Origin: Terrimicrobiaceae bacterium
Lineage (GTDB): Bacteria; Verrucomicrobiota; Verrucomicrobiia; Chthoniobacterales; Terrimicrobiaceae
DNA: 64,000 nucleotides
Direction: 5' to 3'
Assembly (NCBI GenBank): GCA_041746635.1
Contig: JBGTGQ010000034.1
Span: forward strand, 17,309 to 81,308
Shown: piece after piece, positions 22,132 to 55,346 of the stretch
How positions within the stretch are numbered: position 1 is the stretch's first letter
Layout: each line of letters opens with the position of its first letter
Notes under the pieces: model-generated
Database searches by the model: none
Told to the model about the DNA's origin: nothing
What the model saw: only the letters and a program-made list of their open reading frames with translations
Program-made: the position numbers and the translations under genes

Positions 22132-23090
22132 GAGGTTGCGGGGGAGTTTTGCGATGGCAGCCAGTTTTTGTAAATCTCCCGGCAGTATTCCGGCGGGGCG
22201 GGAGCGCGCCCCGTGAGGCGCAGCGAGGCGACAGTCAGGCGTGCGCGCCAACACCATGGCGTGGAGACCCCCTCACGGCGGGCCTGAGCCAGAATCGGAG
22301 CCAGCAGGGCGAGATCTCCCTGACGATAGGCGCGCGTCAGTGCATGGTTGATGATTTGGGCCGGGCCAGTTTTTAGAAAAGACGTGTCGATCTTGCGATG
22401 GCGGCACCAGAGCAGAAACTTCAACTGCAATTGGAGCCGGAACCAAACACTTCTGGCCTGCTGCTGACCAAGCGAGGAGGGAGAATAGCCTTTATCGAGG
22501 ACGATCTGGTCGCAATGCGCGAAGGGTGCCGTCACTCCGCAACGCAGCCAGTATTCGCAATCTTCAACCTGACGAAAACTTTCATCGAAGCCGCCCACGG
22601 CGTCGTTCAACGAACGCCGAACCAGGGCGGACCCTGCGGTGTTGATCGCCGTCCACCAAAACTGCGCCAGAGCCGGTGCAGGCGGAGCGCCCACGGCATA
22701 GGGCAGGCTGGCCAGGCGTGTCTCGATGGCGGGTTCGCGGCGCTGCAGGACAAAGCCATAAACCACCCCGGCATCGGTGTTTTTTGCCGTTTCCTCCAAC
22801 GCCGCCAGAGCTTGGGGATAGAGCATATCGTCCGCGTCCAGGGACAAAAACCAATCACCCCGGCTCAATGCCAATGCGGTGTTCCTCGCGGCGGAGAGAC
22901 CACCATTTTCCCGACGCACATAGCGCACGCTGTCGGCGTAAGCCCGGCAAACCTCGGCCGTATTGTCCGTGCTGCCATCGTCCACCACAATCACCTCATC
23001 CGCCGGACGAGTTTGGGTCAGCACGCTCTCGATGGAGCGCGGTAGCCAACGAGCCGCGTTGTAAGCCGGAATGATAACGCTGATGGTCAT
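22128..23090 (-). CDS. glycosyltransferase family 2
   Basis: MTISVIIPAYNAARWLPRSIESVLTQT...VIVVDDGSTDNT and LSLDADD. Confidence 0.9.
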   Translation of the reverse strand: MTISVIIPAYNAARWLPRSIESVLTQTRPADEVIVVDDGSTDNTAEVCRAYADSVRYVRRENGGLSAARNTALALSRGDWFLSLDADDMLYPQALAALEETAKNTDAGVVYGFVLQRREPAIETRLASLPYAVGAPPAPALAQFWWTAINTAGSALVRRSLNDAVGGFDESFRQVEDCEYWLRCGVTAPFAHCDQIVLDKGYSPSSLGQQQARSVWFRLQLQLKFLLWCRHRKIDTSFLKTGPAQIINHALTRAYRQGDLALLAPILAQARREGVSTPWCWRARLTVASLRLTGRAPAPPEYCREIYKNWLPSQNSPATS

Positions 23091-31545: not shown

Positions 31546-33459
31546 TTATTTTGCAATTGTTTCCGCGAAGCGTGCGGCCAGGCCGGCTGCATCCAGGCGA
31601 TAAAAAGCGAGGATTTCATCGTTCTGACCGCAGCGAGGAACGTCCTCCAACCCAATGGGTGTCCATTGGATTGGCAGACCAAGCCGGGCACAAGCGGCGG
31701 CGATTTTTTCCCCCTGCCCGCCGGCAATTAAATGGTTATCGAGGGTGATAACTTTTTTTGTGGAACCCACAGCCTTCTTGAGCCAATCGAGATCAATGCG
31801 ATTGAGCCAGGGTAGATTGATCAGCCGGACCTTCTTGCCATGCGAACTCTCCAGAGCCTTGGCCGCCTGCCAGGCTTCGGGAAGTAACACCGGGCCATAG
31901 CCGAATACAACCGCATCTTCTCCTTCGAGAAGCGTAACGCCCCGGCCTTTGATTATCTGATAATCCGAAGGCAACTCGAAGGGAATTGCCCGGGGAATGG
32001 AAACGAGGCGGAGATAGAAGTTTTCCTCCTGTCCGTTCACACAATAATCGAAAAGCAACTCGACTTCCCGTTCACAGGATGGCTCAGCCATGGCCAGACG
32101 GGCTATCCCGCCGACGGAACTGATATCCCGAACGCATTGGTGGGAATGCCCTGGTCCCGAAGGAAGCAGTCCAGCCAGCGAACCAGCATAGCCGACCTGG
32201 GTTCCCTCGGTGGCATTGTTGAAGATCTGCTCATTGGGCCGGGTCGAGAGAAAACAGGAGAACGAATGGACAATCGGCAGCAAGCCCTTCAAGGCCATTC
32301 CCCCCGCTTGGGAAACCATGTCCTGCTCCGCAATTCCGCATTCAAAGAAGCGTTCGGGGAAGCGCTTTTCAAATTCCAGCACACCGCAGTCCAGTGCCAG
32401 GTCACCGTCCAATGCGACAAGGTGCTCATTCTTTTCCGCTGCGGCGACCAAGGCACGAGAGTACGCCTCGATAAGTTTGTCCGGCTTCTCAGGCAGCACG
32501 CGTGTCGGACGTTCCTTGGTTTCGAGCGCCAACGGGGCGGCACCCAAAAGAGCAAGCTGGGCATTGGCAGAATCAATTAACTCTCCAAGCGCGGCCAGAT
32601 AGGTCGCCTGGTCCGGCGCGCCACTGTGAAACGAATAAAGCCGCGGATTTTTCATGGCAGCTGGTTCCATGAAGCTTACGCCGCACCCCTTCTTGGTATC
32701 CGCAATAAGCACCTTGGGCCGGTCGGCTATCGTTCTAAAACGCCCGAATACACCCGCCAGGGCTTCAAAATCATGACCGTCGCATCGGGCCACCTCCCAA
32801 CCGAACGCCTGAAATCTTGCTTCGAGGTTGCCCAAATCACTCACGTCCGTAACGAACGTGTCGGATTGAAGTTTATTGTGATCCACAATAACGGTGATTT
32901 CGCCGAGCTCGTCATTGGCGGCTGGCTGCAAGGATTCCCAAAACTGGCCCTCCTGCAACTCGCCGTCACCAGTCAGAACATAGATGGCTTGCTTGCGACC
33001 GTGCAGCCGGTTGGCGATGACCATGCCATGGGCCTTGGAAACCCCCATCCCCAGTGATCCCGTATTGGTTTGAACCTGAGGTATGGTTTTTACGTCCGGA
33101 TGCCCGGGCAGACCACCCAATCGGCGCAGCCTGTCGATTGACTCAAACGGGAGAATCCCCAATCCAATCATCACCGAATATAATCCGGGTGCATCATGTC
33201 CTTTGGAGGAAAAATAGATGTCGGAAACTGTACGCGGGTCAGCGGCGTTATCGCGTTGCAGCTCGTTGAGAAACAGCCAGGACACAATATCCATCGCGCT
33301 AAAACTGCTGCCCAAATGACCAGAGCCCGCCCGTGCGACCAGGGAGAGGGTGTTGATGCGGCAAGCCGTGGCGAAAAGTTGGGCTACCGGAATCGCCGGA
33401 CTCTGAGCGAGGATACGCTGCAATTCAGAAAAGGGCACATCGGAGAGGGTATTATTCAT
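31546..33459 (-). CDS. transketolase-family ThDP enzyme (N- and C-terminal halves fused, 637 aa)
   Basis: SGHLGSSFSAMDIV and GDGELQEGQFWES (ThDP/Mg site), then FECGIAEQDMVSQAGGMA (pyrimidine-binding domain). Confidence 0.85.
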   Translation of the reverse strand: MNNTLSDVPFSELQRILAQSPAIPVAQLFATACRINTLSLVARAGSGHLGSSFSAMDIVSWLFLNELQRDNAADPRTVSDIYFSSKGHDAPGLYSVMIGLGILPFESIDRLRRLGGLPGHPDVKTIPQVQTNTGSLGMGVSKAHGMVIANRLHGRKQAIYVLTGDGELQEGQFWESLQPAANDELGEITVIVDHNKLQSDTFVTDVSDLGNLEARFQAFGWEVARCDGHDFEALAGVFGRFRTIADRPKVLIADTKKGCGVSFMEPAAMKNPRLYSFHSGAPDQATYLAALGELIDSANAQLALLGAAPLALETKERPTRVLPEKPDKLIEAYSRALVAAAEKNEHLVALDGDLALDCGVLEFEKRFPERFFECGIAEQDMVSQAGGMALKGLLPIVHSFSCFLSTRPNEQIFNNATEGTQVGYAGSLAGLLPSGPGHSHQCVRDISSVGGIARLAMAEPSCEREVELLFDYCVNGQEENFYLRLVSIPRAIPFELPSDYQIIKGRGVTLLEGEDAVVFGYGPVLLPEAWQAAKALESSHGKKVRLINLPWLNRIDLDWLKKAVGSTKKVITLDNHLIAGGQGEKIAAACARLGLPIQWTPIGLEDVPRCGQNDEILAFYRLDAAGLAARFAETIAK

Positions 33460-39633: not shown

Positions 39634-40404
39634 TTACACTGGGAGCTCGCCCGAAAAAGCTATGGCGTCAATGAGCGGGAGAGCGATCGTTTGATTCTCC
39701 AAAAGGTAGTTTACATACTGCCAATCGCCTTCATTGTTGACGTCAACCCCTTCGGAATCCCTAGTCAAAAACGGACAGACGGTATTTCCCGATATAGTCC
39801 CCGATTCAAGCACTCTGCTCCACGCGATCTCCAGGCTGGCATTTTGTACATAGACTTCGGGCAGAGCCGCGTATTGAGAACTATGCCAGGGCGTTTCGCC
39901 GTTGAAGTACGGCAAAATGGGCGTCATGATACTCCCGCGAATCACCCACATTTTTCCTGGATGCTGGGCGCATTTTTCCACCGCCCGCAGGGAATCGATG
40001 CCCTCTTGGGCCAGAAACTCAGCCCAAGCCCGTCGAATGGTTTCCGGAAGACGAAAGGGACTTGTCGGCCGAAGGATGCTGAAGCAATCGAAATGCCGTT
40101 CCTCTTGGGCAAAACTCTGCAAGGCGTGCCCGATCCACTCAACATCGGGCGATCTGTCGCCGGAAAACTCCGCTGGGCGCAAGAAGGGAACTTCGGCGCC
40201 GTAGTGGCGGGCGATTTCCGCGTACTGGGCCGAATCGGTTGAGACCACCACCCGCTGGAAGATGCCGGAATCGATGGCGGCGCGGATGGTGTAGGCGATC
40301 ATCGGATGACCGCGGAGGGGGCGGATATTTTTGTCCGTTACGCGTTTCGAGCCCGAACGCGCCGGGATGAGGGCGATGGCGGCGGGGGACAAGGGATTCG
40401 GCAT
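39634..40404 (-). CDS. acylneuraminate (nonulosonate) cytidylyltransferase
   Basis: IALIPARSGSKRVTDKNIRPLRGHPMIAYTI... and LRPTSPFR, the CMP-sugar synthetase (NeuA/KdsB superfamily) signatures. Confidence 0.8.
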   Translation of the reverse strand: MPNPLSPAAIALIPARSGSKRVTDKNIRPLRGHPMIAYTIRAAIDSGIFQRVVVSTDSAQYAEIARHYGAEVPFLRPAEFSGDRSPDVEWIGHALQSFAQEERHFDCFSILRPTSPFRLPETIRRAWAEFLAQEGIDSLRAVEKCAQHPGKMWVIRGSIMTPILPYFNGETPWHSSQYAALPEVYVQNASLEIAWSRVLESGTISGNTVCPFLTRDSEGVDVNNEGDWQYVNYLLENQTIALPLIDAIAFSGELPV

Positions 40405-43180: not shown

Positions 43181-44656
43181 TTAGATAGTGCTGGCACTTA
43201 GCGTGGAAAAATAGAGGTCCTTAAGGTTGGAGTAGATATCAAGGGCCTCGCAGCCTGGCTCCCGGCTGCCGTTGCCCGATGCTTTGACGCCGCCAAAGGG
43301 CATGTGCGGCTCGCTTCCATAGGTTCCCGCGTTGACCACTGCCACGCCCGATTCCACCAGCCGCGTGAACTCCATGGCGCGATCGAAGTTCTTCGTATGG
43401 ATGCAAGCGGTCAGTCCGTAAGGAGACTTATTAGCCAGACTAAGGGCTTCCGCGAAACCGGACACCTTGTAAAGGCAGGCCACCGGCCCAAATAATTCAT
43501 GCTGGGAAATTTCGGCGTCCGGGTGCGCATTCTCAAGGAAGGTCGGTGCCATATAGAAACCGGAGGCATGTCCGGGACCAGTCAGGCGGTTTCCTCCGGT
43601 CAAAACCGTGGCACCTTCCAGCCGAGCCTTGCCCACCGCATCGAGCATGCGTTGAAGCTGGCGGGCGTTGATCACAGGACCAAAGTCGTCCGCATCGTCG
43701 GGACCCACTTTTTGCGTTTCCGCGCCCTTCACGAGTTTCTCGCGCAGGGCCTCGTAAATTGAATCGAAAATGATGATACGGCTGGCGGCGGCACAGCGCT
43801 GGCCGGCGTTGCTGAACGCAGATAACAAAATCCACTTGGCGGCATTATCCAGGTCGGCATCGTCACAGACGACGAGGGGGTTTTTGCCACCCAATTCCAA
43901 GGAAACCTTGGCCAGCCGGCGACCGGCCACCTCAGCAATAAGCCTTCCGACCGCGGAGGATCCGGTGAAACTAATCACGCCGACCCGTTCATCGGCAACC
44001 AAGGCCGCGCCTGCTTCCACTCCCAAACCTTGCATAATATTCAAGACGCCATCCGGCAATCCGGCGGCCTTGGCAAGGCGCGCGAAAACAATCGCGGTGG
44101 CCGGTGTATCTTCAGCCGCCTTGAGCACGGCCGTATTTCCGCAAATCAGTGCCGGAAAAACCTTCCAAGCCACGTTTGCAATCGGCGTATTGGCGGCAAT
44201 GATCAGTCCGGCCAGGCCAACGGGCTGACGAACGGTCATGGCCCACTTATTGGGCGTTCCGCTGGTGGTTGTTTTGCCGTAAAGGCGCTGACCTTCGCCT
44301 GCGTAGAAAAATCCCAAGGCGGCCGCGCCTTCGACTTCTCCCAAGGCATTGGCTAAGGACTTGCCGGTTTCAAGCGCCACGATACGGGCCACTTCTTCCC
44401 GGTGGTCGAGCAAGGCGGCGGCAATCCCGCGAAGGATATCGCCCCGTTTGACAGCGGGCACTTCGGCCCAAGCCGGTTGGACACTCCGCGCTGTCTCGAT
44501 GGCGGCTGAAACATCCTGGGCATCGGATCGCGACACCTCGAACAACACGGTGCCATCGTGAGGATTGAGTTTTTCCAGAATCCTTCCCTTTAGGGCAGCC
44601 TGCTCTTTTCCTGCGATGAAGTTTAAAACTTCCTTGAAACTCGTAAGATCGTTCAT
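43181..44656 (-). CDS. NAD(P)-dependent aldehyde dehydrogenase
   Basis: FTGSSAVG, SLELGGKNP and SNAGQRCAA (catalytic Cys) motifs. ATG at 44656 (MNDLTSFKE). The longer ORF overlaps the upstream gene. Confidence 0.85.
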   Translation of the reverse strand: MNDLTSFKEVLNFIAGKEQAALKGRILEKLNPHDGTVLFEVSRSDAQDVSAAIETARSVQPAWAEVPAVKRGDILRGIAAALLDHREEVARIVALETGKSLANALGEVEGAAALGFFYAGEGQRLYGKTTTSGTPNKWAMTVRQPVGLAGLIIAANTPIANVAWKVFPALICGNTAVLKAAEDTPATAIVFARLAKAAGLPDGVLNIMQGLGVEAGAALVADERVGVISFTGSSAVGRLIAEVAGRRLAKVSLELGGKNPLVVCDDADLDNAAKWILLSAFSNAGQRCAAASRIIIFDSIYEALREKLVKGAETQKVGPDDADDFGPVINARQLQRMLDAVGKARLEGATVLTGGNRLTGPGHASGFYMAPTFLENAHPDAEISQHELFGPVACLYKVSGFAEALSLANKSPYGLTACIHTKNFDRAMEFTRLVESGVAVVNAGTYGSEPHMPFGGVKASGNGSREPGCEALDIYSNLKDLYFSTLSASTI

Positions 44657-44669
44657 TGGTAGATAGCTA

Positions 44670-45611
44670 TCAGTGATTCCCTGCCCTTGAGAACTCGGAT
44701 TTCCAATCCAAAGCACATTCCGCCACAGCGTGGGCCAGCGCTGGGGCTTTGAGCGGGCCGGCCAATTGTTCCAACAGCGTCGTGTCAGCCCTCCACCGAA
44801 CCGGATCCCCCGGAGGAGAGCTGTCCGCAACTTTCAGCGGCTTGGAACACCCGACAGCATCCATGACCTGCCGGGCCAGTTCAGCGACGGAAGTTTCCAC
44901 ACCGCTGGCAAGATTCACGGCGGTGAACCGGCCCGGCAAGGAGGGATTTTCCATAAGTCGGAACAGCCGCTCCATGCAGTCCCGGACAGGCAGGTAATCC
45001 CGCGTCTCTTCTCCCGTCCCATGGATGACCAATTGCGGGTCGTCCGCAAGCACCCGCTGCACCAGCTCCCACAAAAGAAGCCGACGTTGCTCGCGGCCGA
45101 AAACAGAAAACAGCCTCACCGCCAGGACGGAGATGCCATAACAGACATTAAACTCCCGCGCCAGAAGCTCGCAAGCCAGTTTGTGAAAACCATACGGCGA
45201 GATGGGCTGGAGGGGGGCATCTTCCGCAATCGGAAGAGTCGGGGGGTTGCCATAGACAGCGGCGCTGGAGGGGAAAACAACCAGGGCTTGTGATTTCGCC
45301 TCGCGAACTCCTTCCAGGAGATTGGCAAAAGTAAGAACTGAGGCCTTGAGGTCATCCAGGGGGGATAACAAGGAGCGTCCCACCGAGGCCGAACCGGCGG
45401 CATGAACCACCACATCCGGCGCAAAGTCTTCGATGATTGGGGACAGCCGCGACGTGGCCACGTCAACACTGAGGTACTCGTACTCGCCCGTCATTTTCAA
45501 GGAGGGCTGAGCGGAACGGGCCAGGCCGAGAACGTCGTGTCCTCGCGCAGACGCATCCGCGGCCACACTTCCGCCCACGAATCCGCCGCAGCCGGTAACG
45601 AGAATTTTCAT
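44670..45611 (-). CDS. NAD-dependent sugar epimerase/dehydratase (SDR)
   Basis: MKILVTGCGGFVGG and SPYGFHK (YxxxK). ATGA overlap at 45608-45611. Confidence 0.85.
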   Translation of the reverse strand: MKILVTGCGGFVGGSVAADASARGHDVLGLARSAQPSLKMTGEYEYLSVDVATSRLSPIIEDFAPDVVVHAAGSASVGRSLLSPLDDLKASVLTFANLLEGVREAKSQALVVFPSSAAVYGNPPTLPIAEDAPLQPISPYGFHKLACELLAREFNVCYGISVLAVRLFSVFGREQRRLLLWELVQRVLADDPQLVIHGTGEETRDYLPVRDCMERLFRLMENPSLPGRFTAVNLASGVETSVAELARQVMDAVGCSKPLKVADSSPPGDPVRWRADTTLLEQLAGPLKAPALAHAVAECALDWKSEFSRAGNH

Positions 45612-47329
45612 GCGGGTTGCGGGGCGGCGGCCGCCATGTTTTCTGCCTCATCTTCTGCGCGATACACGAAGGGCGCTCCCTCGATGATCCCGCGGCAAAT
45701 GACACCAAGTCCCGGGTCGGCTTTGTCGGAAAAACTTTCCAGCGAATCGGCCACCATGGTGAAGGGGCGCTTTGTTTTGGGTATTTGCTCCACCACGCGC
45801 AGTGGAATCATCCGGCGGAAGAAGAAATGATAGGCGTACTTCAGCGCGCGCATTTTGGTTACTTCCGGCAAGCGTTGTAGCTTGGGGAGCGCATCGAGCA
45901 AACGAAAGTAAGATTCCGGAGAAGTGGCATCATCGGTCAGACCCTTGTTGCGAATCCACGCTTCCCCGGCCACGATCACCGGAATGCCGATGCTGGTGAG
46001 TTCGACTCCGGTTTTGGTGCCGTAAATGATGGCGGTGTCGCAATCCAACGCCAGCGCATACGTGCTCACGTCTTTCTCGGGACCGATAATCCGGATGTTC
46101 TCAGGGAGCGCGGGAAACAGCCTTGCTATTTCCTCTGCCATCAACTGCCGGGACGGAATACCTCCACGGATCTCCGCCGGATGAACCCTGATGATCAAAT
46201 TCAAGTCCGGCCGTTTGGAAAAATAACGGATGGTCTGCTCGATCCAGTCAAGCATGTTCAAAAATGCATTCGCGCGATAATGCAACTGGGCATCCCAAAT
46301 CACGTTGGTAAGCAGAAGAATGCTTGGCTGGCTTTTTTCAAAATGCAGCTCTTGCCGGATCCGCTCGATATCCTCGGTGGGGTTCTCGTGGAAATAGATC
46401 CAATCCTGGGATCCCTGCCAGCGGCTCTTGAGGTATTCCATGGCCTGTTGCTGAATTTTTTCCGTCCAACTTATCGAATCCCACGTACCGACCGGTTCAT
46501 CGACCAAGGTATGATGATACGTGTCGCCGTGGCTGAAGATAAATCGTTGCTTCCTGTAGGCCACCACCCAGTTGGCGATTCGCACCCCCGACTGACGCGC
46601 GACCTCGCCAATGATTCCCTGCGGAATATAGATCCCGTGATGAAAACTGAGGCAACGAAAGGAACGTGAAGCCAACAGCCGACCCATGGCCATGGCGGTG
46701 AGAAGTGAAGCTTCAAAATAACGCCGCAGAACCGGTTCCGCCGTTTCCTCCTGGCTCAAATCGCCCCGCGCGAAAAAACGCAAGGCCCCCGCGGCGGCGT
46801 GTTCCCCGGCGGACAATCCCCGGAATTTGAAGTCGGGGATGTCGGCCATCGGCGTCTTCTGGGCCAGACGAGACGCAGACTTTTTGTCTCCCTTGGTAAG
46901 GAAGTCGGAATACTTCAAAACCGGCAGCCCGAGTGCTCCATAAGTGCTGTCTCCGGCGCCGAAGCAAGCCTGACAATGATTGGACGGACCCGCTTCCACG
47001 AACTGCCACGGGCTTTTGAACATTTTGAAGGTGCATTGCTCGCAGGCTGTCAGCGCACCGTCACAGAGAAGAAAACTTACCCTTGCCCCCCGCAGGGTCA
47101 GCGCGATGGCGAGCACCATGTCCAATTCGCGCACAGCTGCGTGACCACCCACACTAGACGCCAGTAAAATCTCCGGGCCACTCTGCGCAGCCCGAACGGC
47201 TTTTCGCCACTTATCCCCCTCGCGTTCGAGAAAATCCGCGAGGTGTTTAGGCGGGGGCTGACGCGGTGCGGCCACCGGTCTTTTCGGTGGCAAGAATTTC
47301 CTGAGAAAGGAAAACAGTTCCATTACCAT
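45608..47329 (-). CDS. capsule-biosynthesis (KpsS/KpsC, Capsule_synth)-like GT-B protein with N-terminal Cys cluster
   Basis: 573 aa. LNLIIRVHPAE and AIIYGTKTGVELTSIGIPVIVAGEAW resemble the KpsS/KpsC/LipB family. N-terminal C-x6-C-x2-C ... C-x2-C cluster. The assignment is from motif memory only. Confidence 0.5.
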   Translation of the reverse strand: MVMELFSFLRKFLPPKRPVAAPRQPPPKHLADFLEREGDKWRKAVRAAQSGPEILLASSVGGHAAVRELDMVLAIALTLRGARVSFLLCDGALTACEQCTFKMFKSPWQFVEAGPSNHCQACFGAGDSTYGALGLPVLKYSDFLTKGDKKSASRLAQKTPMADIPDFKFRGLSAGEHAAAGALRFFARGDLSQEETAEPVLRRYFEASLLTAMAMGRLLASRSFRCLSFHHGIYIPQGIIGEVARQSGVRIANWVVAYRKQRFIFSHGDTYHHTLVDEPVGTWDSISWTEKIQQQAMEYLKSRWQGSQDWIYFHENPTEDIERIRQELHFEKSQPSILLLTNVIWDAQLHYRANAFLNMLDWIEQTIRYFSKRPDLNLIIRVHPAEIRGGIPSRQLMAEEIARLFPALPENIRIIGPEKDVSTYALALDCDTAIIYGTKTGVELTSIGIPVIVAGEAWIRNKGLTDDATSPESYFRLLDALPKLQRLPEVTKMRALKYAYHFFFRRMIPLRVVEQIPKTKRPFTMVADSLESFSDKADPGLGVICRGIIEGAPFVYRAEDEAENMAAAAPQPA

Positions 47330-48120
47330 GCGGTCCAGCCACCATCCACCACCACATCGGAACCCGTCATGTATTTTGAAGCCTCGGAAAGCAACAGCAC
47401 GACGGGACCGAAATAATCCTCCGCCGTGGCCATGCGCCCCATGGGCATGCGGTTGAGATAGCCTTTCAGAAACTTTTCATCCTGACCGTCGGAAACTCCA
47501 GCGAGAGTGAGGGTGTTGACCCGCACCCCTTGGGATGCCCAATAAGTGGAAAGATATCTCGTAAGATTGTAAAGAGCCGACTTTGAAGCCGAATAAGCAA
47601 CGGGTTTAAAAAAAGCATTCCCGTCGTTTTCCCGATAAGTGTAGATTCTCTGATCCGGAGAAACCGCGCCATAGATCGAACTAATGTTGATAATGGATCC
47701 GCGGCCGGCCTGCGCCATGGCTCCGCCAAAGACCTGGCAGCAGAGAAACACGCCCTTGACGTTGACATCCATGACCGCATCCCATGATTTTTCCGGGTAG
47801 GTTTCAAACGGCCCGTTTTCTTCCGCCGGGCTGTTGGGAGGTGAGTCGAGAGCGGCATTATTGATTAGGCCGAAAGGCACCTCCCATCGACGGGTGATCA
47901 ACGCCAACGCGGCTTCCAATTCGGATCGCACCAGCACATTGGCGGCCACATGCAGAATCTCATCGTTGGAAACCGCATTTTTCACCGCATCCGCCCGGTC
48001 GATCACCGCCAGTCTCGCACCGCGATCAACCAAACATCTGCTGTATTCGCGGCCAAGGCGGCCCATTCCCCCGGTCACCACCACAACTTTGTTTTCCAGA
48101 GAAAACAGCGGATCATTCAT
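47323..48120 (-). CDS. SDR family oxidoreductase (classical short-chain type)
   Basis: VVVVTGGMGRLG, NNAA and a YSASK catalytic motif. Confidence 0.85.
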   Translation of the reverse strand: MNDPLFSLENKVVVVTGGMGRLGREYSRCLVDRGARLAVIDRADAVKNAVSNDEILHVAANVLVRSELEAALALITRRWEVPFGLINNAALDSPPNSPAEENGPFETYPEKSWDAVMDVNVKGVFLCCQVFGGAMAQAGRGSIINISSIYGAVSPDQRIYTYRENDGNAFFKPVAYSASKSALYNLTRYLSTYWASQGVRVNTLTLAGVSDGQDEKFLKGYLNRMPMGRMATAEDYFGPVVLLLSEASKYMTGSDVVVDGGWTAW

Positions 48121-49091
48121 TAGTAATTTGCTTTCTTTTCATATCCGATGGCTATTTCGCGACAATGTTCGTAAATCCCGCGGCAGTGAGCCTCCATGAA
48201 GGCCGCGTCCTCCGGGGCAACATGGCTCGAGCGGTCGAGCGCATCGGCCAGAATGCCCGGATTGGGGGCCGCGAAAGATGTATCCGCCCGAATTGGCATT
48301 CCGTTAAAGGTCGGGGTCAGAAGCTTTTCGGAAAACGCGATACCCAGATCGCAGCAAAGTGCCGTCATGATCTCGCGGGGGCGGGCAACCAAATCCTCAA
48401 AGATGACGACAAGGACATTCCGGCCCGACTTTTGTAATTGGAGGGCGGCAAGCGTGGAGGCTTGCCAGAGAAAGGCCGCTTCAACGCGATCTCCATAGAC
48501 CTTCGGATCATGCCGTTTGGCCGATGCCAGCCAGGAAACAGGGTCTCTTACCATCGTAATCAAGGCACCATCTGGATAATCGGAAAAAAATCGCTCCGGT
48601 TCACCCGGCATCATGGAAAGCCGGGCGGAAAATGCACACCAGCATTTTACCTCCGCAGGAAAACCATAGTCCGACCAAGCTTGGAAATAACTCCAGACGA
48701 ACCGATCAAGCAAGTTTCGGGGCAAAGGCACGGTGAGCCCCTCACACGCGTCGAGAAAAAGTTGACGATGCTCCCGCACATCCAGCTTGAAATCAAACCG
48801 ATCGGGCGCCGTCACAGCTGCCGGCGAGGCCTTGACATATCCTTTTTGAGCTAATTTCTCCACCAGCGGATCCTCCAGCTGATTGAAGGTCTCATCCGGC
48901 CCAACATAGGAAGGCAAGGCCGCCCAAAAATGCTTGAGACGCGATCCGAATCTCAACTCAGAGTGTCGCACAAGCATTTGAGGATGGCCGTCAAAAAGCT
49001 GGGTTAAGAACGTGCCCCCGCTTCTTTGCACCTGGGAAATCAAGACAAGCGGAGGCGAAAAATCGCTTGGAAATGCCGTATAATTCTCCAT
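48120..49091 (-). CDS. sulfotransferase family protein
   Basis: ISQVQRSGGTFLTQL (5'-PSB-like loop) and ITMVRDPVSWLAS (3'-PB-like RDP motif). ATG at 49091 (MENYTAF). The longer ORF overlaps the upstream gene. Confidence 0.6.
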   Translation of the reverse strand: MENYTAFPSDFSPPLVLISQVQRSGGTFLTQLFDGHPQMLVRHSELRFGSRLKHFWAALPSYVGPDETFNQLEDPLVEKLAQKGYVKASPAAVTAPDRFDFKLDVREHRQLFLDACEGLTVPLPRNLLDRFVWSYFQAWSDYGFPAEVKCWCAFSARLSMMPGEPERFFSDYPDGALITMVRDPVSWLASAKRHDPKVYGDRVEAAFLWQASTLAALQLQKSGRNVLVVIFEDLVARPREIMTALCCDLGIAFSEKLLTPTFNGMPIRADTSFAAPNPGILADALDRSSHVAPEDAAFMEAHCRGIYEHCREIAIGYEKKANY

Positions 49092-49104
49092 CAGGAAATC
49101 CAGA

Positions 49105-49623
49105 TTATTGATGGCTTTGTAGGCGCCAAACGAGATCACAGAATTCGCGCACAGCCCCATGGCCACCGGGCCGCAAGGTCCGAAACCGCGCCAAGGAGAC
49201 CACTTCCTCGACGGCGTCGGCGACCACCACCGGCAAACCCACGACCCGAAGACAGGCCGCATCGTTGACATCGTTGCCCAGAAAAGACGTTTCCTCCATT
49301 TTGAGGTGTTTTTCGGCCAGGAACGAACTCAAGGCCCCCGCCTTGTCTTCACAACCTTGCACGCAGGGTAACTTCAACTTGCGACAGCGCGCGCTCACCA
49401 CCGGATTAACCTCCGTGGAAATAACAACGGCAGAAATGCCGATTGAGCGCAACCGTTCGAGGCCTATGCCATCCGCCCGGCTGCAGCGAACGGATTCCTC
49501 TCCAGTTTCGGAGACATAGACCGCATTGTCGGTAAAAACCCCGTCGAAGTCGAAGGCGGCGCAGCGCAATCGACCCAGCAGCGCGAGATCGGCCTCCGCC
49601 AGGGACGAATACAACTCGCTCAC
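49105..49623 (-). CDS. HAD-superfamily KdsC-type (C0) phosphatase, candidate nonulosonate-9-phosphate phosphatase
   Basis: FDFDGVFTDN (motif I) and GNDVND (motif IV), 172 aa. GTGA overlap with the synthase gene. Confidence 0.8.
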   Translation of the reverse strand: MSELYSSLAEADLALLGRLRCAAFDFDGVFTDNAVYVSETGEESVRCSRADGIGLERLRSIGISAVVISTEVNPVVSARCRKLKLPCVQGCEDKAGALSSFLAEKHLKMEETSFLGNDVNDAACLRVVGLPVVVADAVEEVVSLARFRTLRPGGHGAVREFCDLVWRLQSHQ

Positions 49624-50672
49624 GCCAGATTATCATCCGTGAAAAAATCGTCTTCCGCAAGGGCAGCCTTCAATTTTTTCCCGATAAGTGAATCGATCTC
49701 GTAAGGAGGCATACCTCCCGCAGGCACCTTAATCGCGACGTGCTCGCTGGTGATCACGGTTCCGGCGGGAAGATCCCGCGCGGCGAAGAGGCTCTTGCCC
49801 ATCTTGGTGATGGCGGGGATTTCCTGGGGCAAAACCTGCTTCTCCGGGCTGCCCAGCGCTTCGCGGGCACGCTCCAGATCGCGCACCATCTTGTGCATGC
49901 CGATCGGCTCAAGGGAAAGGGCATGATCCGTTCCCTTCCAAGTATGATTAAGGGTGAAATGCTTCTCGATCACGCGAGCTCCGAGAACATAAGCCGCCAC
50001 GGTCAGGGAGATGCCGTTGAAGTGATCGGAAAGACCGATGACGACATCAGGAAAAGCCTCACGCAGGGTGGGAATGACGCGCAGGTGCATATCCCTCGCC
50101 TCCGTCGGATAAGTCGCCGTGCATTGCAGGAAGCAAAGCTGGGGATTGATCGGAGCGATCTCCTCGTAAACCCGTTTGACATCGTCGAGGGACCCGCCGC
50201 CGGAACTGATAATCATGGGCTTCTTGAACCCGGCAACATGCTTGAGGAGCGGGAGATTCTTCAGATCGGCCGAGGCAATTTTGTACAGCGGCAGGTCGAG
50301 GTCCGCGAGAAAGTCTGCGCTGGCATGATCGAAAGCCGTGGCGAAAAAGTGGATGTCCAGTTCCTTGGCCAGTTGTTGGAATTCGAGATAGTCCTTTTTG
50401 CCAAACTCCAGAAATTCGCGGTGTTCTCCATACGTCTTGCCGAAGCTGTTTTCGTTTTCGTAGGGTTTGTTATAAGCGGCTTTGGTGAAGAGCGTTTTGT
50501 TTTCGCGTTTCTGGAGCTTCACGGCCTGCACACCGGCCATCTTCGCGGCCCGGATGAGGTCGAGAGTTTTCTCCACGTCGCCTTGTCCGTTGTTGCCCAG
50601 TTCGGCAATGACATAACAGTTGCTGTCGTCATCGATGCGGGTGCCTTGAATGGTGAGGTGTCGGTCTTTCAT
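49620..50672 (-). CDS. neuB: nonulosonic acid (sialic acid/KDN) synthase, NeuB family, NANS-like subtype with SAF domain
   Basis: CYVIAELGNNGQGD, GKTYGEHREFLEF, FLQCTATYP, GLSDH, TWKGTDHALSLEP and a C-terminal SAF-like domain. Confidence 0.85.
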   Translation of the reverse strand: MKDRHLTIQGTRIDDDSNCYVIAELGNNGQGDVEKTLDLIRAAKMAGVQAVKLQKRENKTLFTKAAYNKPYENENSFGKTYGEHREFLEFGKKDYLEFQQLAKELDIHFFATAFDHASADFLADLDLPLYKIASADLKNLPLLKHVAGFKKPMIISSGGGSLDDVKRVYEEIAPINPQLCFLQCTATYPTEARDMHLRVIPTLREAFPDVVIGLSDHFNGISLTVAAYVLGARVIEKHFTLNHTWKGTDHALSLEPIGMHKMVRDLERAREALGSPEKQVLPQEIPAITKMGKSLFAARDLPAGTVITSEHVAIKVPAGGMPPYEIDSLIGKKLKAALAEDDFFTDDNLA

Positions 50673-50814: not shown

Positions 50815-52176
50815 TCAAGCCCGGTCAGCCAGATTTATTTTCAACTCACGAGCACGCCGCGTGATTTTGGGAATCAATTTGCGGCGGAGCGCTCCCTCGT
50901 CCGATATATACTGCGCCAGTTTGAATAGACGCTTCGGCGTGACGGAGATCGTCATCTCGCGCGATCTCCGCTGGGTGCGAGTGAGAATGTACCTGACCCA
51001 CCATTTGGTCAGCGTTTTTCCAAGGAACAGGCGGGCAGACCAAAGGGAAGCCTGTCGCAACTTGAGATCGAGGACTTCGATCTCCTCGATCTGTCGATCT
51101 CTGGCGGACTTTTCCGTGGGGATCGGTCCGAATCCAGCGCACACCCTTTCGAGGGTTTCGAGACGATATTGCAAAATCTGCCTCAACTGGCGCGCTTCGT
51201 TCAAAAACTCCATTTGCCCACCTTCGGTTCCGCAACCAAAAGAGGAATCCGCCTGCGGCGCTTGAAATTCAAGCAACCTCTCGGAAATATGCTGACGCAA
51301 ACAAACCCCCGCTTCGCGATCACGTTCCTTCTTGTGAGTCTCAATGAACTCCGAAAAGACTTCGCAACCCCATTCGCGTTCTTCGGACGGCACTTCCTCG
51401 GTGAATTTGGCGTGAAAAGATCGCAAGGGATGACGCTCCGGACTCAGATGACGCCGGAGAAAGCTTCCCTGCATCGCGCTCCAAACAGAATGGAGCAAAA
51501 GCTTTTCATATCTGGCTTCGTAAAGGCGCTTGTTTCGCGCGATGCGCTCCTTCCTTTCCTTGCCTCCAATCCAGGAATCACCCTCATGATGACGGAAATG
51601 ATCAATGGCGATCTTCTTGGAAAAAACGACATCCAAGCCAGCCAGCAAGACCCGGGTGGTCAGATCATTGTCAATGAAGTAGTCGCGTAAGTTTTCGTCA
51701 AAGCCTCCCAATTCCCGAAAGACGCTGGTGCGTAATACGCCTTGATTACAATTGAGAACTCCGGTGGTTCCCACGGTGCCAATGAAGGGAAGATGCGCGG
51801 AGGGACCAGTCACATCCTTCACCTTCAAGCTGACTAAACCTATGGAGGAATCCTGGTCGAGAACCTGGACAGCATGCCGCAAGGCACCCGGACGAATGAC
51901 ATTATCATCACTCAACCAGCACAGATAGTCCGTTTTGGCTTGGTCCGCCGCGCGGTTCAAGGCCCACGCCTGACCATTGCGCTCTTTTTCCAAAACGACC
52001 TGAACGTCGGTTTGCGTCTGGAGATACTCCCTCGTTCCATCCGTTGATCCCGCATCGATTACCACAATCGATACAAAATCATAACCTTCGCCGCGCACTA
52101 AAGCAAGACAGCGTTCGAAAAGCGCCTTGCGATTGCAGGTGCCTATCACCACGGTGATACGAGGTCCGTTAGCCAT
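50815..52176 (-). CDS. GT2 glycosyltransferase with a helical C-terminal extension of about 200 aa (paralogue of 58618..59892)
   Basis: ITVVIGTCNRKALFERCL...VIDAGSTDGT...WLSDDN. ATG at 52176 (MANGPR). The tail contains heptad-like stretches (FLNEARQLRQILQYRLETLERV). Confidence 0.75.
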   Translation of the reverse strand: MANGPRITVVIGTCNRKALFERCLALVRGEGYDFVSIVVIDAGSTDGTREYLQTQTDVQVVLEKERNGQAWALNRAADQAKTDYLCWLSDDNVIRPGALRHAVQVLDQDSSIGLVSLKVKDVTGPSAHLPFIGTVGTTGVLNCNQGVLRTSVFRELGGFDENLRDYFIDNDLTTRVLLAGLDVVFSKKIAIDHFRHHEGDSWIGGKERKERIARNKRLYEARYEKLLLHSVWSAMQGSFLRRHLSPERHPLRSFHAKFTEEVPSEEREWGCEVFSEFIETHKKERDREAGVCLRQHISERLLEFQAPQADSSFGCGTEGGQMEFLNEARQLRQILQYRLETLERVCAGFGPIPTEKSARDRQIEEIEVLDLKLRQASLWSARLFLGKTLTKWWVRYILTRTQRRSREMTISVTPKRLFKLAQYISDEGALRRKLIPKITRRARELKINLADRA

Positions 52177-54466
52177 GTTCTGCGGGAAGACTTGCGCGAT
52201 CATTGGACAGACCGTCTGGCGGAAAGACCGAGCTTTTCCACTCCTCAATGTGGCAGGTAAAATCTGTGATGCATGGCGTGAAGGCGGCCGGGGTCAGGAA
52301 ACCGGTTCCATAATAATCCCCTTCCTCAACCAGCAAGAATTCCGGCGGTTTCAGGGTGTCCATTAACTCCCCGTTTATCATGAGTGAGAGAGAAAATGAA
52401 TAGCTCCCCGCCACTAGGGGAAGCTTGGGGAGCATAAAGCAAACTGCTGCCTGATCCGGGAACGGTTCCAGGCTCCCCCCAACCATCCTGCTATCCAATC
52501 CCAAGACACGAACGCCCTCTTTGTTAAGAATCAGGAGCTTGATTTTGGCTTTAGAGATTTCCGCAGCCAACGGGAAAGTTTTCACGCATTTGACGACCAG
52601 GCGGCAGGTCTCTCCGGTGCGAAAGCTGCTGGTCGCACGGTTATGGATATCGCGGGTTTCCAGACTCTGGATCTTGTAGGCGGGAATCTCCTCACCCTCC
52701 AAGTAGCCTCGCATCGGAGGATGCAAGCCTTTCCGCCCCTCAAGGTAACAGATGAATTCCACACAGACAGGAGCAAAAAAGGGCAGGGCGGCACGACAAA
52801 ATCCATAAAAATCACCATCCTCGACAGTAAGCGGGACGTCGGGAACATATTCATCAATCAGTTCCGCATTCATGAAGAGGGAAATCACAAAGGAATATGT
52901 GCCCGCCGCCAAGGGGAGCTTCGGTAACTCAAAATAAATCGTGTCCGCATCAGGAAACGGAACGAACAGAGGCTTCACTAGGCTGCTATCCATTCCAATC
53001 ACGCGGATGCCTTTGTCATTCACAATTGACAGGCGCAGGGTAACCTTCCGAATTTCTTCATTCAGCGGGAAGTTTTTTGCATATTTCACGGCGATGCAAC
53101 ACGGCTCAGCCGTGCGAAAGCTGCTCGTCGCACGGTTATGGATATCGCGGGTTTCCAGACTCAGAATCTTGTAGGCGGGATTTCGCTCACCCTCCAAATA
53201 GCAAGTGAAATCCACGCAAAGAGGAGTAAAGGAAGGGGAGGCCGCGCGACCGGTGCCGTAGAAGTCTCCGTCCTCCACCAAAAAAAAGGCGTCCGGAATA
53301 ACTTTGTCTATCAACTCACCATTCACCGAGAGGGCAAGCGAGAAAGAATACGTGCCCTCCATGAGGGGAAGCTTCGGAATGACGAAACATACCGCACCTG
53401 TGTCGGGAAAAGGAATAAGCTTGGGTTTTACCAAACTGCTATCTAATCCTATAAGGCGATTGCCTTGTTCATTAAGAATCGACAGCCGCAATGTGACTTT
53501 GTCGATGGCTTGCTCTAGGTGGAAGTTATTGGAGTACTTCACGGCGATGCGGCAGGGTTCCCCCGTGCGAAACCTGCCGGCGGGTCGTCCCTGGCCGTCG
53601 CGGGTTTCAACCGCGAGAATTTTATAAGCGGAGTTTTTCGATTCACCCGCCAAGTGAAGGGCTGCGGAGTGCGAGGGAGAATGAACTGCCAGCTTGATAA
53701 TCTGCGCTTTACGATATTCCTCGCAGACCACATCCGTGTCACCGTCCATGCGTACGGTTCCCTTTTCCAACCAGATGACCCGGCTGCACAAGCGTGAAAC
53801 ATGGCCAATACTGTGGCTGACAAAGAGCCCGGTTTGCCCTCCCGAAGCCAGCACCTCAATGCGGTGCAGGCATTTTTCCCGGAAGCCTAGATCACCGACA
53901 GCCAGGACTTCATCGAGAATCATAATTTCGGGCTCGATAATAGCCGCGACGGAGAAAGCCAGGCGCACCCTCATACCGCTGGAATAGCGCTTTACCGGGG
54001 TGTCAATAAATTGATGCAGCTCCGCAAAGTCCAGAATCTCATCAAACTTGCTCTCAATTTCCCCCCGGCTCATACCCAGAACCGCGCCATTGAGAAAAAC
54101 GTTGTCGCGGCCGGTTAGTTCAGGGTGAAATCCTGATCCTACTTCCAGGAGAGTGCCCACCCGGCCATTGATGGTCATTTCCCCTGTTGTGGGGGTCGTG
54201 ACACGGGCGAGAAGCTTCAGCAGGGTGGACTTGCCAGCTCCATTTGTGCCGATGAGTCCGACGGTTTCCCCCTTTTTGATGTCGAAGGAGATGTCTTTGA
54301 GTGCCCAGAATTCCGGCGTGGCGGCGGGCGGAGCCGCAGCGGCTGGTTTACCGCGACGGAAAACACGGTCCCGCCAGCCTCGTAGGTCATCCAGCATCAT
54401 GCGCTGATTCACCGTTCCCAAACGGTATCGTTTGGAAATATTACGGAGGGAGATGGCGATTGGCAT
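52169..54466 (-). CDS. wzt: polysaccharide ABC exporter ATP-binding protein (Wzt/TagH type) with three tandem C-terminal modules
   Basis: Walker A GTNGAGKST, signature YSSGM, Walker B MILDEV. Directly downstream of an ABC-2 permease gene. aa 280-745 form three homologous repeats. Confidence 0.9.
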   Translation of the reverse strand: MPIAISLRNISKRYRLGTVNQRMMLDDLRGWRDRVFRRGKPAAAAPPAATPEFWALKDISFDIKKGETVGLIGTNGAGKSTLLKLLARVTTPTTGEMTINGRVGTLLEVGSGFHPELTGRDNVFLNGAVLGMSRGEIESKFDEILDFAELHQFIDTPVKRYSSGMRVRLAFSVAAIIEPEIMILDEVLAVGDLGFREKCLHRIEVLASGGQTGLFVSHSIGHVSRLCSRVIWLEKGTVRMDGDTDVVCEEYRKAQIIKLAVHSPSHSAALHLAGESKNSAYKILAVETRDGQGRPAGRFRTGEPCRIAVKYSNNFHLEQAIDKVTLRLSILNEQGNRLIGLDSSLVKPKLIPFPDTGAVCFVIPKLPLMEGTYSFSLALSVNGELIDKVIPDAFFLVEDGDFYGTGRAASPSFTPLCVDFTCYLEGERNPAYKILSLETRDIHNRATSSFRTAEPCCIAVKYAKNFPLNEEIRKVTLRLSIVNDKGIRVIGMDSSLVKPLFVPFPDADTIYFELPKLPLAAGTYSFVISLFMNAELIDEYVPDVPLTVEDGDFYGFCRAALPFFAPVCVEFICYLEGRKGLHPPMRGYLEGEEIPAYKIQSLETRDIHNRATSSFRTGETCRLVVKCVKTFPLAAEISKAKIKLLILNKEGVRVLGLDSRMVGGSLEPFPDQAAVCFMLPKLPLVAGSYSFSLSLMINGELMDTLKPPEFLLVEEGDYYGTGFLTPAAFTPCITDFTCHIEEWKSSVFPPDGLSNDRASLPAEHG
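52232..52681 (-). repeat. Wzt C-terminal module copy 3 (aa 596-745)
   Basis: AYKIQSLETRDIHNRATSSFRTGETCRLVVKC...LPLVAGSYSFSLSLMINGELMD...VEEGDYYG...DFTCHIEE. Shares a stretch of about 90 nt, near-identical, with copy 2 (495-nt period). Confidence 0.8.
52682..53176 (-). repeat. Wzt C-terminal module copy 2 (aa 431-595)
   Basis: AYKILSLETRDIHNRATSSFRTAEPCCIAVKY...LPLAAGTYSFVISLFMNAELID...VEDGDFYG...EFICYLEG. Confidence 0.8.
53177..53629 (-). repeat. Wzt C-terminal module copy 1 (aa 280-430)
   Basis: AYKILAVETRD...FRTGEPCRIAVKY...LPLMEGTYSFSLALSVNGELID...VEDGDFYG...DFTCYLEG. Confidence 0.8.
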
Positions 54467-54497
54467 GGTTGAGGGTAATCCGACTTGCGTCAGGAAA

Positions 54498-55346
54498 TTA
54501 AATCGTGTCGGCGAAGTTCTCCTCCGCCCGTTTAAAGGCCCACAGGCCTACGACGAGAAGGATGAGAGTAATGGCCAGGCTAACGAACCATTGCCAGATT
54601 TCAACATCACCCTGTCCCATTAGCGCGAAGCGGAAACTTTCCACAATGGGCACGACGGGATTGATATTCATCAACCACTGGTATTGTTCACCCACCATGG
54701 AGCGGGGAAAGAAAATACAACTGCCATACATCCATAATTGAATGGCAGGAGACACCACCATTTGCAAATCACGGAAGCGCGTCGTGAGCGCCGCTATCAG
54801 ACATCCTACCCCCATGCCCAGTAAAGCCGTTTGAAGAATTAGGGCCGGAATAATAATGACGCGATAACTCGGATGAAGGGGAGCTCCATTCCAATAAAAA
54901 TAGGCATAAAACCCGAGAAAAATGATAAACTGCACCAGAGACAGCCAAAGATTTAGAATAGTCTGGGCGATGGGAATGGTCAGCCTAGGAAAGTAGATCT
55001 TGGTGATCAGAGAGGAGTTGGAAGTGAAAGTTAGCGAGGTCTTAGAAAGACAACTGGAAAAGAAATACCAAACGACAATTCCCGACATGTAAAAGAGAAA
55101 AGGCGGAATCTTATCGGTGGGCAGATTGGCAATGCCTTGGAAGACCAGGGTGAAAGCCACGGTCGTTATCAGGGGCTGGATGAAGTACCATAATGGACCC
55201 ATGACCGTCTGCGAATTAACGGCAATGAAGTCCCGGCGCACGGAAAGCGCGATCAGGTCACGATACTGCCAGATCTCGCGCAATCCGGCCATGATCGAGC
55301 CACGGTTGGTCGTATATTTCCAACTCACAGAGGATGGTTCAGACAT
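54498..55346 (-). CDS. wzm: polysaccharide ABC exporter permease (ABC-2 type, Wzm/TagG/KpsM-like)
   Basis: Six hydrophobic helices. Has ITKIYFPR, RFRD and NPVVP blocks typical of ABC-2 permeases. Confidence 0.9.
   Translation of the reverse strand: MSEPSSVSWKYTTNRGSIMAGLREIWQYRDLIALSVRRDFIAVNSQTVMGPLWYFIQPLITTVAFTLVFQGIANLPTDKIPPFLFYMSGIVVWYFFSSCLSKTSLTFTSNSSLITKIYFPRLTIPIAQTILNLWLSLVQFIIFLGFYAYFYWNGAPLHPSYRVIIIPALILQTALLGMGVGCLIAALTTRFRDLQMVVSPAIQLWMYGSCIFFPRSMVGEQYQWLMNINPVVPIVESFRFALMGQGDVEIWQWFVSLAITLILLVVGLWAFKRAEENFADTI

Follow-up and report, generated by a model that had tools for sequence, protein, structure and literature searches.

The region analysed here is a 64,000-nucleotide stretch (the window) of contig JBGTGQ010000034.1, positions 17,309 to 81,308, from the genome assembly of a Terrimicrobiaceae bacterium of the Verrucomicrobiota (GCA_041746635.1), and our subject is a pair of its genes, encoding a NeuB-family synthase and a haloacid dehalogenase (HAD) phosphatase, together with the conserved gene module to which the pair belongs (Table 1). 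An earlier interpretation made without database searches, here called the sequence-only reading, had proposed that the pair makes 3-deoxy-D-glycero-D-galacto-non-2-ulosonic acid (KDN) or another nonulosonate through a 9-phosphate. Its description of the two genes is exact: coordinates, strand, protein lengths and overlap agree with the list of open reading frames (ORFs) and with the letters themselves, the GTG start of the phosphatase and the TGA stop of the synthase sharing GTGA (plus strand ctcacgcc at 49620-49623). The domains and motifs that it named are likewise all present. The synthase matches Pfam NeuB (5e-74, 249.2 bits, cut-off 22.1) and SAF (6.5e-10, 39.9 bits, cut-off 21), and the phosphatase, a match to the HAD family Hydrolase_3, contains both FDFDGVFTDN and GNDVND, the C0-type motifs. 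We regard both as real genes rather than chance ORFs: identical proteins are on record, one source being an NCBI assembly and another a Logan contig, and among the homologues a synthase cluster of 93% identity gives E = 1e-217. The nearest genomes are metagenome-assembled genomes (MAGs) of Verrucomicrobiota, with 92% identity in an unclassified MAG (locus L003) and 93% in a Terrimicrobiaceae MAG. The start/stop overlap of the two genes recurs in L003, L024 and L028, and a synthase followed by an overlapping or abutting phosphatase is also found in Kallotenue papyrolyticum and other lineages.

On tree and motif evidence, the synthase is a member of the clade that holds the animal sialic acid 9-phosphate synthase NANS and the KDN-9-phosphate (KDN-9-P) synthases, and by clade it would be of the aldose-6-phosphate-dependent type. 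It is 43% identical to human NANS (339 residues, one gap, 306 bits), 34% to the KDN-9-P synthase of Prymnesium parvum and 31% to that of the Bacteroides thetaiotaomicron type; PseI and NeuB structures score 133-140 bits in phmmer, a scale not directly comparable with the BLAST bits for NANS. Our neighbour-joining tree (253 catalytic-domain columns, 500 bootstraps, explicit bipartition counts) took NeuB, PseI, SpsE, NANS and two KDN-9-P synthases as references, LegI not being among them. In 99.4% of bootstraps, human NANS, both KDN-9-P synthases and 21 window-type synthases were separated from Neisseria meningitidis NeuB, PseI, SpsE and two second-copy synthases, and the window-type synthases were monophyletic in 77%. 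The motif NS(F/Y/W)GxTYGxH(R/K)xxLE, carried by the window synthase as NSFGKTYGEHREFLEF, is confined to the NANS/KDN-9-P group and absent from all five classical sequences. A second motif, K(L/F)QK(R/S), is present as KLQKR in the window synthase and occurs in most members of the group and in none of the five; the B. thetaiotaomicron-type synthase has KMTKR. Furthermore, AELG, KLQ, GLSDH and EKHFT of the window synthase align with N. meningitidis NeuB residues E25, K53, Q55, H215 and H236, which we take to be catalytic or metal-binding.

The expectation that the synthase would prove closer to NANS and the Bacteroides enzyme than to classical NeuB is thus borne out, and of PseI and classical NeuB it groups with neither. 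An identity as classical NeuB or PseI was rejected on the clade split and on both NCBIfam equivalog cut-offs, which the synthase misses at 278.9 against 399.65 for NeuB/NnaB (TIGR03569) and 236.3 against 340.25 for PseI (TIGR03586); the TIGR03569 cut-off is also missed by the 9-phosphate controls, namely human NANS (302.5), the B. thetaiotaomicron-type synthase (239.1) and the P. parvum synthase (176.4), all three of which stay under the PseI cut-off too. The human NANS sequence used is an exact match to NP_061819.2 and the N. meningitidis NeuB sequence to PDB 1XUU, the BT1714-type synthase was taken from a contig where a 99%-identical BT1713 copy adjoins it, and BT1713 and the P. parvum enzymes were translated from the supplement of PMC6200933. 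Some NANS-like representatives are much longer than the window synthase (P0379, 530 aa; P0456, 963 aa; P0504, 1146 aa), with the synthase domain internal or C-terminal, which suggests fusions with other pathway enzymes.

With human NANS (SIAS_HUMAN) the window synthase has in common its clade, the NeuB plus SAF architecture and the blocks GKTYGEH..LEF, FLQCT.(T/A)YP, TWKG(T/S)DH and ALGSP.KQ.LP, present in the window as GKTYGEHREFLEF, FLQCTATYP, TWKGTDHALSLEP and ALGSPEKQVLPQE, all of which align with the human protein. It differs in being bacterial, in standing in an operon-like module without genes to supply N-acetylmannosamine 6-phosphate (ManNAc-6-P), and in having Gly29 for a His. The preferred substrate of human NANS is presumably ManNAc-6-P, with KDN-9-P synthesis as a side activity, and that NANS is the closest characterised homologue would favour the formation of N-acetylneuraminic acid (Neu5Ac) or another N-acylated nonulosonate from ManNAc-6-P, animal style. 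We consider this very unlikely, however, because no GNE, NeuC, NanE, NanK or aminotransferase is found in the window, none is consistently linked in the related loci read, and the phosphatase is of the KDN-9-P phosphatase type. When about 60 window ORFs were scanned against Pfam, NeuC/Epimerase_2, DegT aminotransferase, NanE and NanK had no match among them, and no genes of the pseudaminic acid (Pse) pathway were found; the three extended short-chain dehydrogenase/reductase (SDR) genes of the epimerase/dehydratase type (13847-14740, 20983-22257 and the one in Table 1) have no aminotransferase alongside. The absence from the window of NeuC, of a Pse or legionaminic acid (Leg) aminotransferase and of a 4,6-dehydratase set, which the sequence-only reading had asserted, therefore holds. 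The P. parvum enzyme, which belongs to the same clade and has the signature motif, is specific for mannose-6-phosphate (mannose-6-P; Wagstaff et al. 2018, PMC6200933), and differs from the window synthase in being eukaryotic, without SAF, and with no linked phosphatase (PMC6200933).

The best NCBIfam match of the phosphatase by score is the KdsC model (NF007019, 99.9 bits), as would be expected of an ordinary 3-deoxy-D-manno-oct-2-ulosonate (Kdo) 8-phosphate phosphatase serving lipopolysaccharide (LPS) synthesis and adjacent to the synthase by coincidence. That score is far under the cut-off of 208, however, and the YrbI subfamily is also missed (TIGR01670, 95.8 against 106.95); the KDN-9-P phosphatase model, which was built on Bacteroides-type sequences, gives 85.6 against 180 (NF058599). 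The nearest solved phosphatase is Streptomyces avermitilis 3MMZ with 118.7 bits, compared with 46-91 for KdsC structures and 66.9 for BT1713. Six residues, D10, D12, E56, R64, K67 and K80 in BT1713 numbering, are kept in the window phosphatase and in 12/12 aligned phosphatases linked to synthases of the clade (ten from module loci, one from Bacteroidales and one from Streptomyces). BT1713 and 3MMZ themselves have E56, R64 and K67 as well. In the two KdsC structures compared, position 56 is occupied by Arg or Ala and position 67 by Ser or Gln. We take these three residues to be nonulosonate-binding markers of KDN-9-P phosphatases, their roles in BT1713 reportedly having been described, and we take the window type to be distinct from the animal NANP type. 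Moreover, the same synthase-phosphatase pair is carried by Kallotenue, which belongs to the Chloroflexota; since LPS and Kdo are generally considered absent from that phylum, this argues against a KdsC role. KdsC identity was rejected on the two missed cut-offs and on residues 56 and 67, and we attach next to no probability to it.

Since the synthase falls in the NANS/KDN-9-P clade and its coupled phosphatase resembles KDN-9-P phosphatases more closely than KdsC, a route through a phosphorylated intermediate is the best reading of the pair. This part of the original proposal stands. The part that the locus makes KDN is incomplete, having overlooked the SDR, aldehyde dehydrogenase (ALDH) and transketolase-like genes that belong with the pair, and the supposed rarity of the route in bacteria is not supported. 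Relatives of the synthase clade occur in seven bacterial groups, namely Verrucomicrobiota, Chloroflexota, Acidobacteriota, Actinomycetota, Pseudomonadota, Planctomycetota and a Syntrophorhabdus MAG. Among the best 120 clusters at the 90% identity level, none falls below 63% identity with the window synthase, and at least 150 clusters at the 50% level score above 215 bits against it. Because the clade is so widespread, the pair alone is one more bacterial case of the animal-type 9-phosphate route, useful but unsurprising.

The wider gene order is a different matter. The pair heads a collinear series consisting of synthase, phosphatase in some loci, SDR in some loci, ALDH, NeuA-like cytidylyltransferase, a fused transketolase-like enzyme and, in some loci, a KpsS/KpsC-like protein. 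To count linkage, window proteins were searched against all ORFs of the retrieved loci, of which 19 independent ones extend 5 kb or more downstream from the synthase. An ALDH is linked to the synthase in 17/19 and a transketolase-like gene in 16 of the 18 evaluable loci; a cytidylyltransferase is present in 14/19, as is an SDR, which follows the phosphatase or the synthase, and a phosphatase in 12/19. In five loci (L008, L014, L016, L017 and L024) a KpsS/KpsC-like homologue comes directly after the transketolase. The collinear order is found in Solirubrobacter soli and in Kallotenue papyrolyticum, where it reads methyltransferase, synthase, phosphatase, SDR, ALDH, cytidylyltransferase, transketolase and a 571-aa protein, and also in MAGs of Chthoniobacter, Opitutaceae, Anaerolineales, Pyrinomonadaceae, Thermoanaerobaculia, Thiohalobacter and Syntrophorhabdus; it thus spans at least six bacterial phyla. 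An Anaerolineales genome (minus the phosphatase and SDR) and a metagenome contig from the Joint Genome Institute (JGI) repeat the Kallotenue order, and in S. soli and the Opitutaceae MAG a synthase without an adjacent phosphatase is followed by SDR, ALDH, cytidylyltransferase and fused transketolase. Orthologues are approximately 45% to 65% identical to the Chloroflexota copies, as estimated by eye from the alignments. The order is fixed across phyla while the neighbouring glycosyltransferases vary, and in the window all parts lie within 31.5-50.7 kb. The cytidylyltransferase that the sequence-only reading had named is genuine, its nearest structures being NeuA-type. No published description of the module turned up in our literature search.

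Table 1. Genes of the synthase-phosphatase pair, its conserved module and the surrounding glycan cluster (positions in the window)
Feature	Coordinates	Strand	Basis or remark
NANS-type nonulosonate-9-phosphate synthase (NeuB + SAF)	49620..50672	-	350 aa, ATG start; Pfam, clade
C0-type HAD phosphatase, KDN-9-P-phosphatase-like	49105..49623	-	172 aa, GTG start; Pfam Hydrolase_3
Sulfotransferase, lineage-specific insertion outside the conserved module	48120..49160	-	Pfam Sulfotransfer_3; 346-aa gene call in L001
Classical SDR oxidoreductase, module member	47323..48120	-	Pfam adh_short
KpsS/KpsC-like (Capsule_synth) putative CMP-sugar transferase	45608..47329	-	Pfam PF05159, 8e-7
NAD-dependent epimerase/dehydratase, lineage-specific	44670..45611	-	Pfam Epimerase; also in L003
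Aldehyde dehydrogenase, core module member	43181..44656	-	Pfam Aldedh 1.7e-147; ELGGKNP and GQRC catalytic motifs
NeuA/PseF-like CMP-ulosonate cytidylyltransferase, core member	39634..40404	-	CTP_transf_3 (PF02348) 2e-22, 80.4 bits
Fused transketolase-like thiamine diphosphate (ThDP) enzyme, core member	31546..33459	-	Pfam Transketolase_N / pyr / C
Wzm/Wzt ABC exporter	52169..55346	-	ABC-2 permease and ATPase with Wzt_C

Two of the loci show departures of their own. On a second contig of Candidatus Villigracilis propinquus (L023 7977-9047), the synthase is in three overlapping ORF fragments while the downstream ALDH, cytidylyltransferase and transketolase are intact; the fragmentation could mean either that the gene is a pseudogene or that the assembly is faulty. 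On the JGI contig, which holds a complete module, a split E1/transketolase-like gene pair (L028 2102-4097) lies some 6 kb upstream with epimerase/dehydratase and DegT genes as its neighbours, so that the glycan region encodes two ThDP enzymes.

If the additional enzymes of the module serve other sugars of the glycan or only supply precursors, then synthase, phosphatase and cytidylyltransferase would yield CMP-KDN from mannose-6-P. In line with this, two of the three characterised clade relatives are KDN-9-P synthases, human NANS presumably has that side activity, the phosphatase markers match BT1713, and no ManNAc-6-P supply gene is found among the window ORFs scanned. The B. thetaiotaomicron KDN pathway, in which BT1714 is reportedly the KDN-9-P synthase and BT1713 the KDN-9-P phosphatase, has the same combination of a clade synthase, a C0 HAD phosphatase with E56, R64 and K67, and a CTP_transf_3 cytidylyltransferase, the window differing from it in the low synthase identity and phosphatase model score given above. 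The Bacteroidales locus that we examined, which has a 70%-identical BT1713 homologue, contains in this order a cytidylyltransferase, NeuB/SAF synthase, acetyltransferase, phosphatase and flippase, and further on a GT52-type transferase. The Streptomyces locus of the 3MMZ type, which we take to be the type for the Kdn-containing teichulosonic acid of the cell wall, similarly has its phosphatase beside a NeuB-family synthase, 36% identical to that of the window, and differs in that this synthase is without SAF and a polysialyltransferase-like gene (PF07388) is present.

In neither of these KDN-type loci is there an SDR, an ALDH or a transketolase, so the three enzymes appear dispensable for KDN synthesis. 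Against plain KDN as the product stands the finding that the synthase is more strongly linked to the ALDH and the transketolase than to the phosphatase, and that these two genes, absent from KDN-type loci, are interleaved with the cytidylyltransferase in one order across phyla. Nor can they readily be assigned to precursor supply, as mannose-6-P requires no dedicated supply enzymes. We consider plain KDN a possible outcome but an unlikely one: the final sugar is probably something else, and because the module adds an SDR, an ALDH and a transketolase that the KDN pathway does not need, we think it likelier that the route passes through KDN or KDN-9-P than that it ends there.

The family relationships of the additional enzymes give some indication of what they might do. 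The best NCBIfam matches of the SDR, all sub-threshold and mostly sugar-acid dehydrogenases, include D-mannonate oxidoreductase, gluconate 5-dehydrogenase, GolD/DthD and KduD; in most of these we take the hydroxyl that is oxidised to be the one adjacent to a sugar acid's terminal CH2OH. Those of the ALDH, likewise sub-threshold, are alpha-ketoglutaric semialdehyde and 2,5-dioxovalerate dehydrogenases, enzymes that convert a 2-keto acid with a terminal aldehyde to a 2-keto diacid. PDB neighbours of both proteins are generic and uninformative as to substrate. Against structures, the cytidylyltransferase scores 69-92 bits with NeuA-type enzymes and at most 35.5 with KdsB, and it remains under the PseF equivalog cut-off (137.4 against 205.7). 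The KpsS/KpsC-like protein has no sequence match in the PDB.

The nearest solved structure to the transketolase-like enzyme is human transketolase (EC 2.2.1.1, PDB 4KXU), with which it has the full-length three-domain organisation in common by sequence, and its score against the NCBIfam transketolase model is 355.5 with a cut-off of 488. When 17 module transketolases were aligned with human TKT (sequence identical to PDB 4KXU), the ThDP, metal and catalytic residues H37, H77, H110, D155, N185, H258 and E366 were invariant in 17/17. By contrast, five human residues are changed in every copy: R318 is lost by deletion, while Asp stands in place of S345, Leu, Tyr or Phe in place of H416, Ser, Ile or Thr in place of R474, and Pro in place of D424. 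R318, S345, H416 and R474 are presumably substrate-phosphate binders. Because the catalytic residues are kept while these four presumed phosphate-site residues are replaced, the module transketolase is probably active, but not on ordinary sugar phosphates.

Taken together, these observations lead us to favour, on balance and with some reserve, the interpretation that the synthase and phosphatase are predicted entry steps of a conserved sugar-acid module in which processing follows the phosphatase, set in a gene cluster for an ABC-exported surface glycan. By clade, the synthase would condense phosphoenolpyruvate with an aldose 6-phosphate, most simply mannose-6-P, to give KDN-9-P or an isomer, and the coupled phosphatase would remove the 9-phosphate. 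As synteny and residue patterns suggest, the free acid would then be processed by the SDR, the transketolase-like enzyme and the ALDH. The NeuA-like cytidylyltransferase would convert the product into a CMP-sugar that the KpsS/KpsC-like transferase would add to the glycan, possibly as a chain-end residue that is read by the carbohydrate-binding domains of Wzt.

For the processing steps we put forward a specific but tentative scheme, to us the most economical one, in which the module would be an enzymatic counterpart of the periodate trimming of the sialic acid side chain and would give a CMP-activated heptulosaric acid. The SDR might oxidise the C8 hydroxyl to a ketone and so make the HOCH2-CO-CHOH end that a transketolase donor needs; the transketolase-like enzyme, without its phosphate site, might take off the C8-C9 two-carbon unit; and the ALDH might oxidise the resulting C7 aldehyde to a 3-deoxy-hept-2-ulosaric acid, 3-deoxy-L-arabino if the precursor is KDN. 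By Fischer-projection reasoning, C7 and C6 of 8-oxo-KDN have the D-threo arrangement that transketolase requires. The scheme uses each conserved enzyme once, and would thereby explain both the prior removal of phosphate and the loss of the phosphate site from the transketolase. The known heptulosaric acid Dha (3-deoxy-D-lyxo-hept-2-ulosaric acid) was itself rejected as the product: by our own reasoning, NeuB-type addition gives a C4 configuration opposite to that of D-lyxo Dha.

Alternatively, the nine-carbon acid could be changed in another way, either by oxidation of C9 to a carboxylate through SDR and then ALDH, giving a nonulosaric acid, or by a two-carbon extension catalysed by the transketolase. 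The synteny of the module speaks for this alternative as well, and dephosphorylation exposes the C9 hydroxyl; furthermore, transketolases can extend sugar-acid aldehydes in vitro, as in the reported use of Thermotoga maritima transketolase for 7-keto-octuronic acid synthesis (PMC8317047). However, the C9-carboxylate version gives the transketolase no role and the extension version gives the ALDH none. The best matches of the SDR, moreover, are mostly what we take to be secondary-alcohol dehydrogenases rather than primary-alcohol oxidases. We therefore regard such a change as improbable.

Several observations weigh against the preferred interpretation of a post-phosphatase processing module, or against its details. 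The phosphatase is absent from 7/19 loci and the SDR from 5/19, and in two loci, L012 and L018 (one from a planctomycete, the other from an Anaerolineales MAG), synthase and phosphatase occur with no ALDH or transketolase, as plain KDN synthesis would predict. In the window itself the module is interrupted by other genes, the transketolase lying 6 kb past the cytidylyltransferase. The window synthase also has Gly29 (50586-50588, minus strand) in place of the His of AEIGxNH, which is invariant in the 28 other NeuB-family sequences aligned (NeuB, PseI, SpsE, NANS, KDN-9-P synthases and other module synthases); the substitution is common to the window synthase and the 92%-identical L003 copy only, and both ORFs are otherwise intact. 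The family matches of the SDR and ALDH are under curated cut-offs, with a modest lead over the next families. As for the transketolase, the quantum mechanics/molecular mechanics study of the human enzyme places the replaced residues in the active-site region around the adduct of xylulose 5-phosphate with ThDP, and says no more of a phosphate-binding role than that (PMC8016368). Transketolase cleavage in the trimming scheme also calls for some molecule to accept the two-carbon unit, for which we have no candidate. Finally, we found no glycan structure for any organism that bears the module.

The setting of the module is consistent with a product destined for the cell surface. From about 7578 to 61960, the window holds a near-unbroken minus-strand array of about 54 kb devoted mainly to glycan synthesis, with more than 20 glycosyltransferases, at least five methyltransferases, acyltransferases, a sulfotransferase and a Wzm/Wzt exporter; an array of this size is unusually large for one surface-glycan region. 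Two long ORFs of the cluster, at 36575-38974 (minus strand, 799 aa) and 57331-58608 (minus strand, 425 aa), have no Pfam match. The presence in the cluster of an ABC-2 permease together with a Wzt_C ATPase marks it as a system with ABC-transporter-dependent glycan export. The Wzt ATPase (52169-54466, minus strand) is 765 aa long and has three Wzt_C repeats in tandem, which measure about 140 aa apiece and start with AYKI(L/Q)(A/S)(V/L)ETRD, whereas Wzt in L026 and L027 is 426 aa and too short for three such repeats; the three domains may serve the recognition of a complex or multivalent chain end. Since Wzm/Wzt with Wzt_C also adjoin the module in six other loci (L003, L005, L018, L020, L026 and L027), the module sugar may be a chain-end mark recognised by the exporter, by analogy with Kdo-capped O-antigens.

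The surroundings of the pair also differ between lineages in ways that may bear on decoration of the glycan. In the window the phosphatase and the SDR are separated by the sulfotransferase gene, which overlaps the phosphatase 3' end by about 56 nt, whereas in L003, 92% identical, the SDR directly follows the phosphatase with no sulfotransferase between them; the gene has the appearance of a recent insertion and is a hint that the glycan may be sulfated. In Chloroflexota-type loci, the gene immediately upstream of the synthase encodes an FkbM-type methyltransferase (Methyltransf_21) and overlaps the synthase start (L024 9223-10008, L026 9166-10008 and L028 9174-10004), where the window instead has a GT2 gene. 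To judge from this gene, the module sugar of Chloroflexota-type loci may be O-methylated.

Our findings touch on how acidic sugars of bacterial surfaces are catalogued as well as how they are made. Annotation in environmental surveys of nonulosonic acids cannot tell Neu5Ac synthases from KDN synthases (PMC10483923), and such surveys would therefore file this synthase clade under 'sialic acid'. The module, which many environmental lineages and no fewer than two cultured strains (Kallotenue papyrolyticum and Solirubrobacter soli DSM 22325) possess, points to a CMP-activated acidic sugar of bacterial surfaces that has yet to be described. The LPS of Rhizobiaceae is reported to contain Dha (Russa 1991), whose biosynthesis a 2025 review still counts among the unknowns (PMC12168206). 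If the trimming scheme is true, the module would represent the first route by which a heptulosaric acid is biosynthesised, the acid being a relative of Dha by stereoisomerism, and would provide both the first testable enzymology of such acids and a new type of reaction for transketolase-like enzymes.

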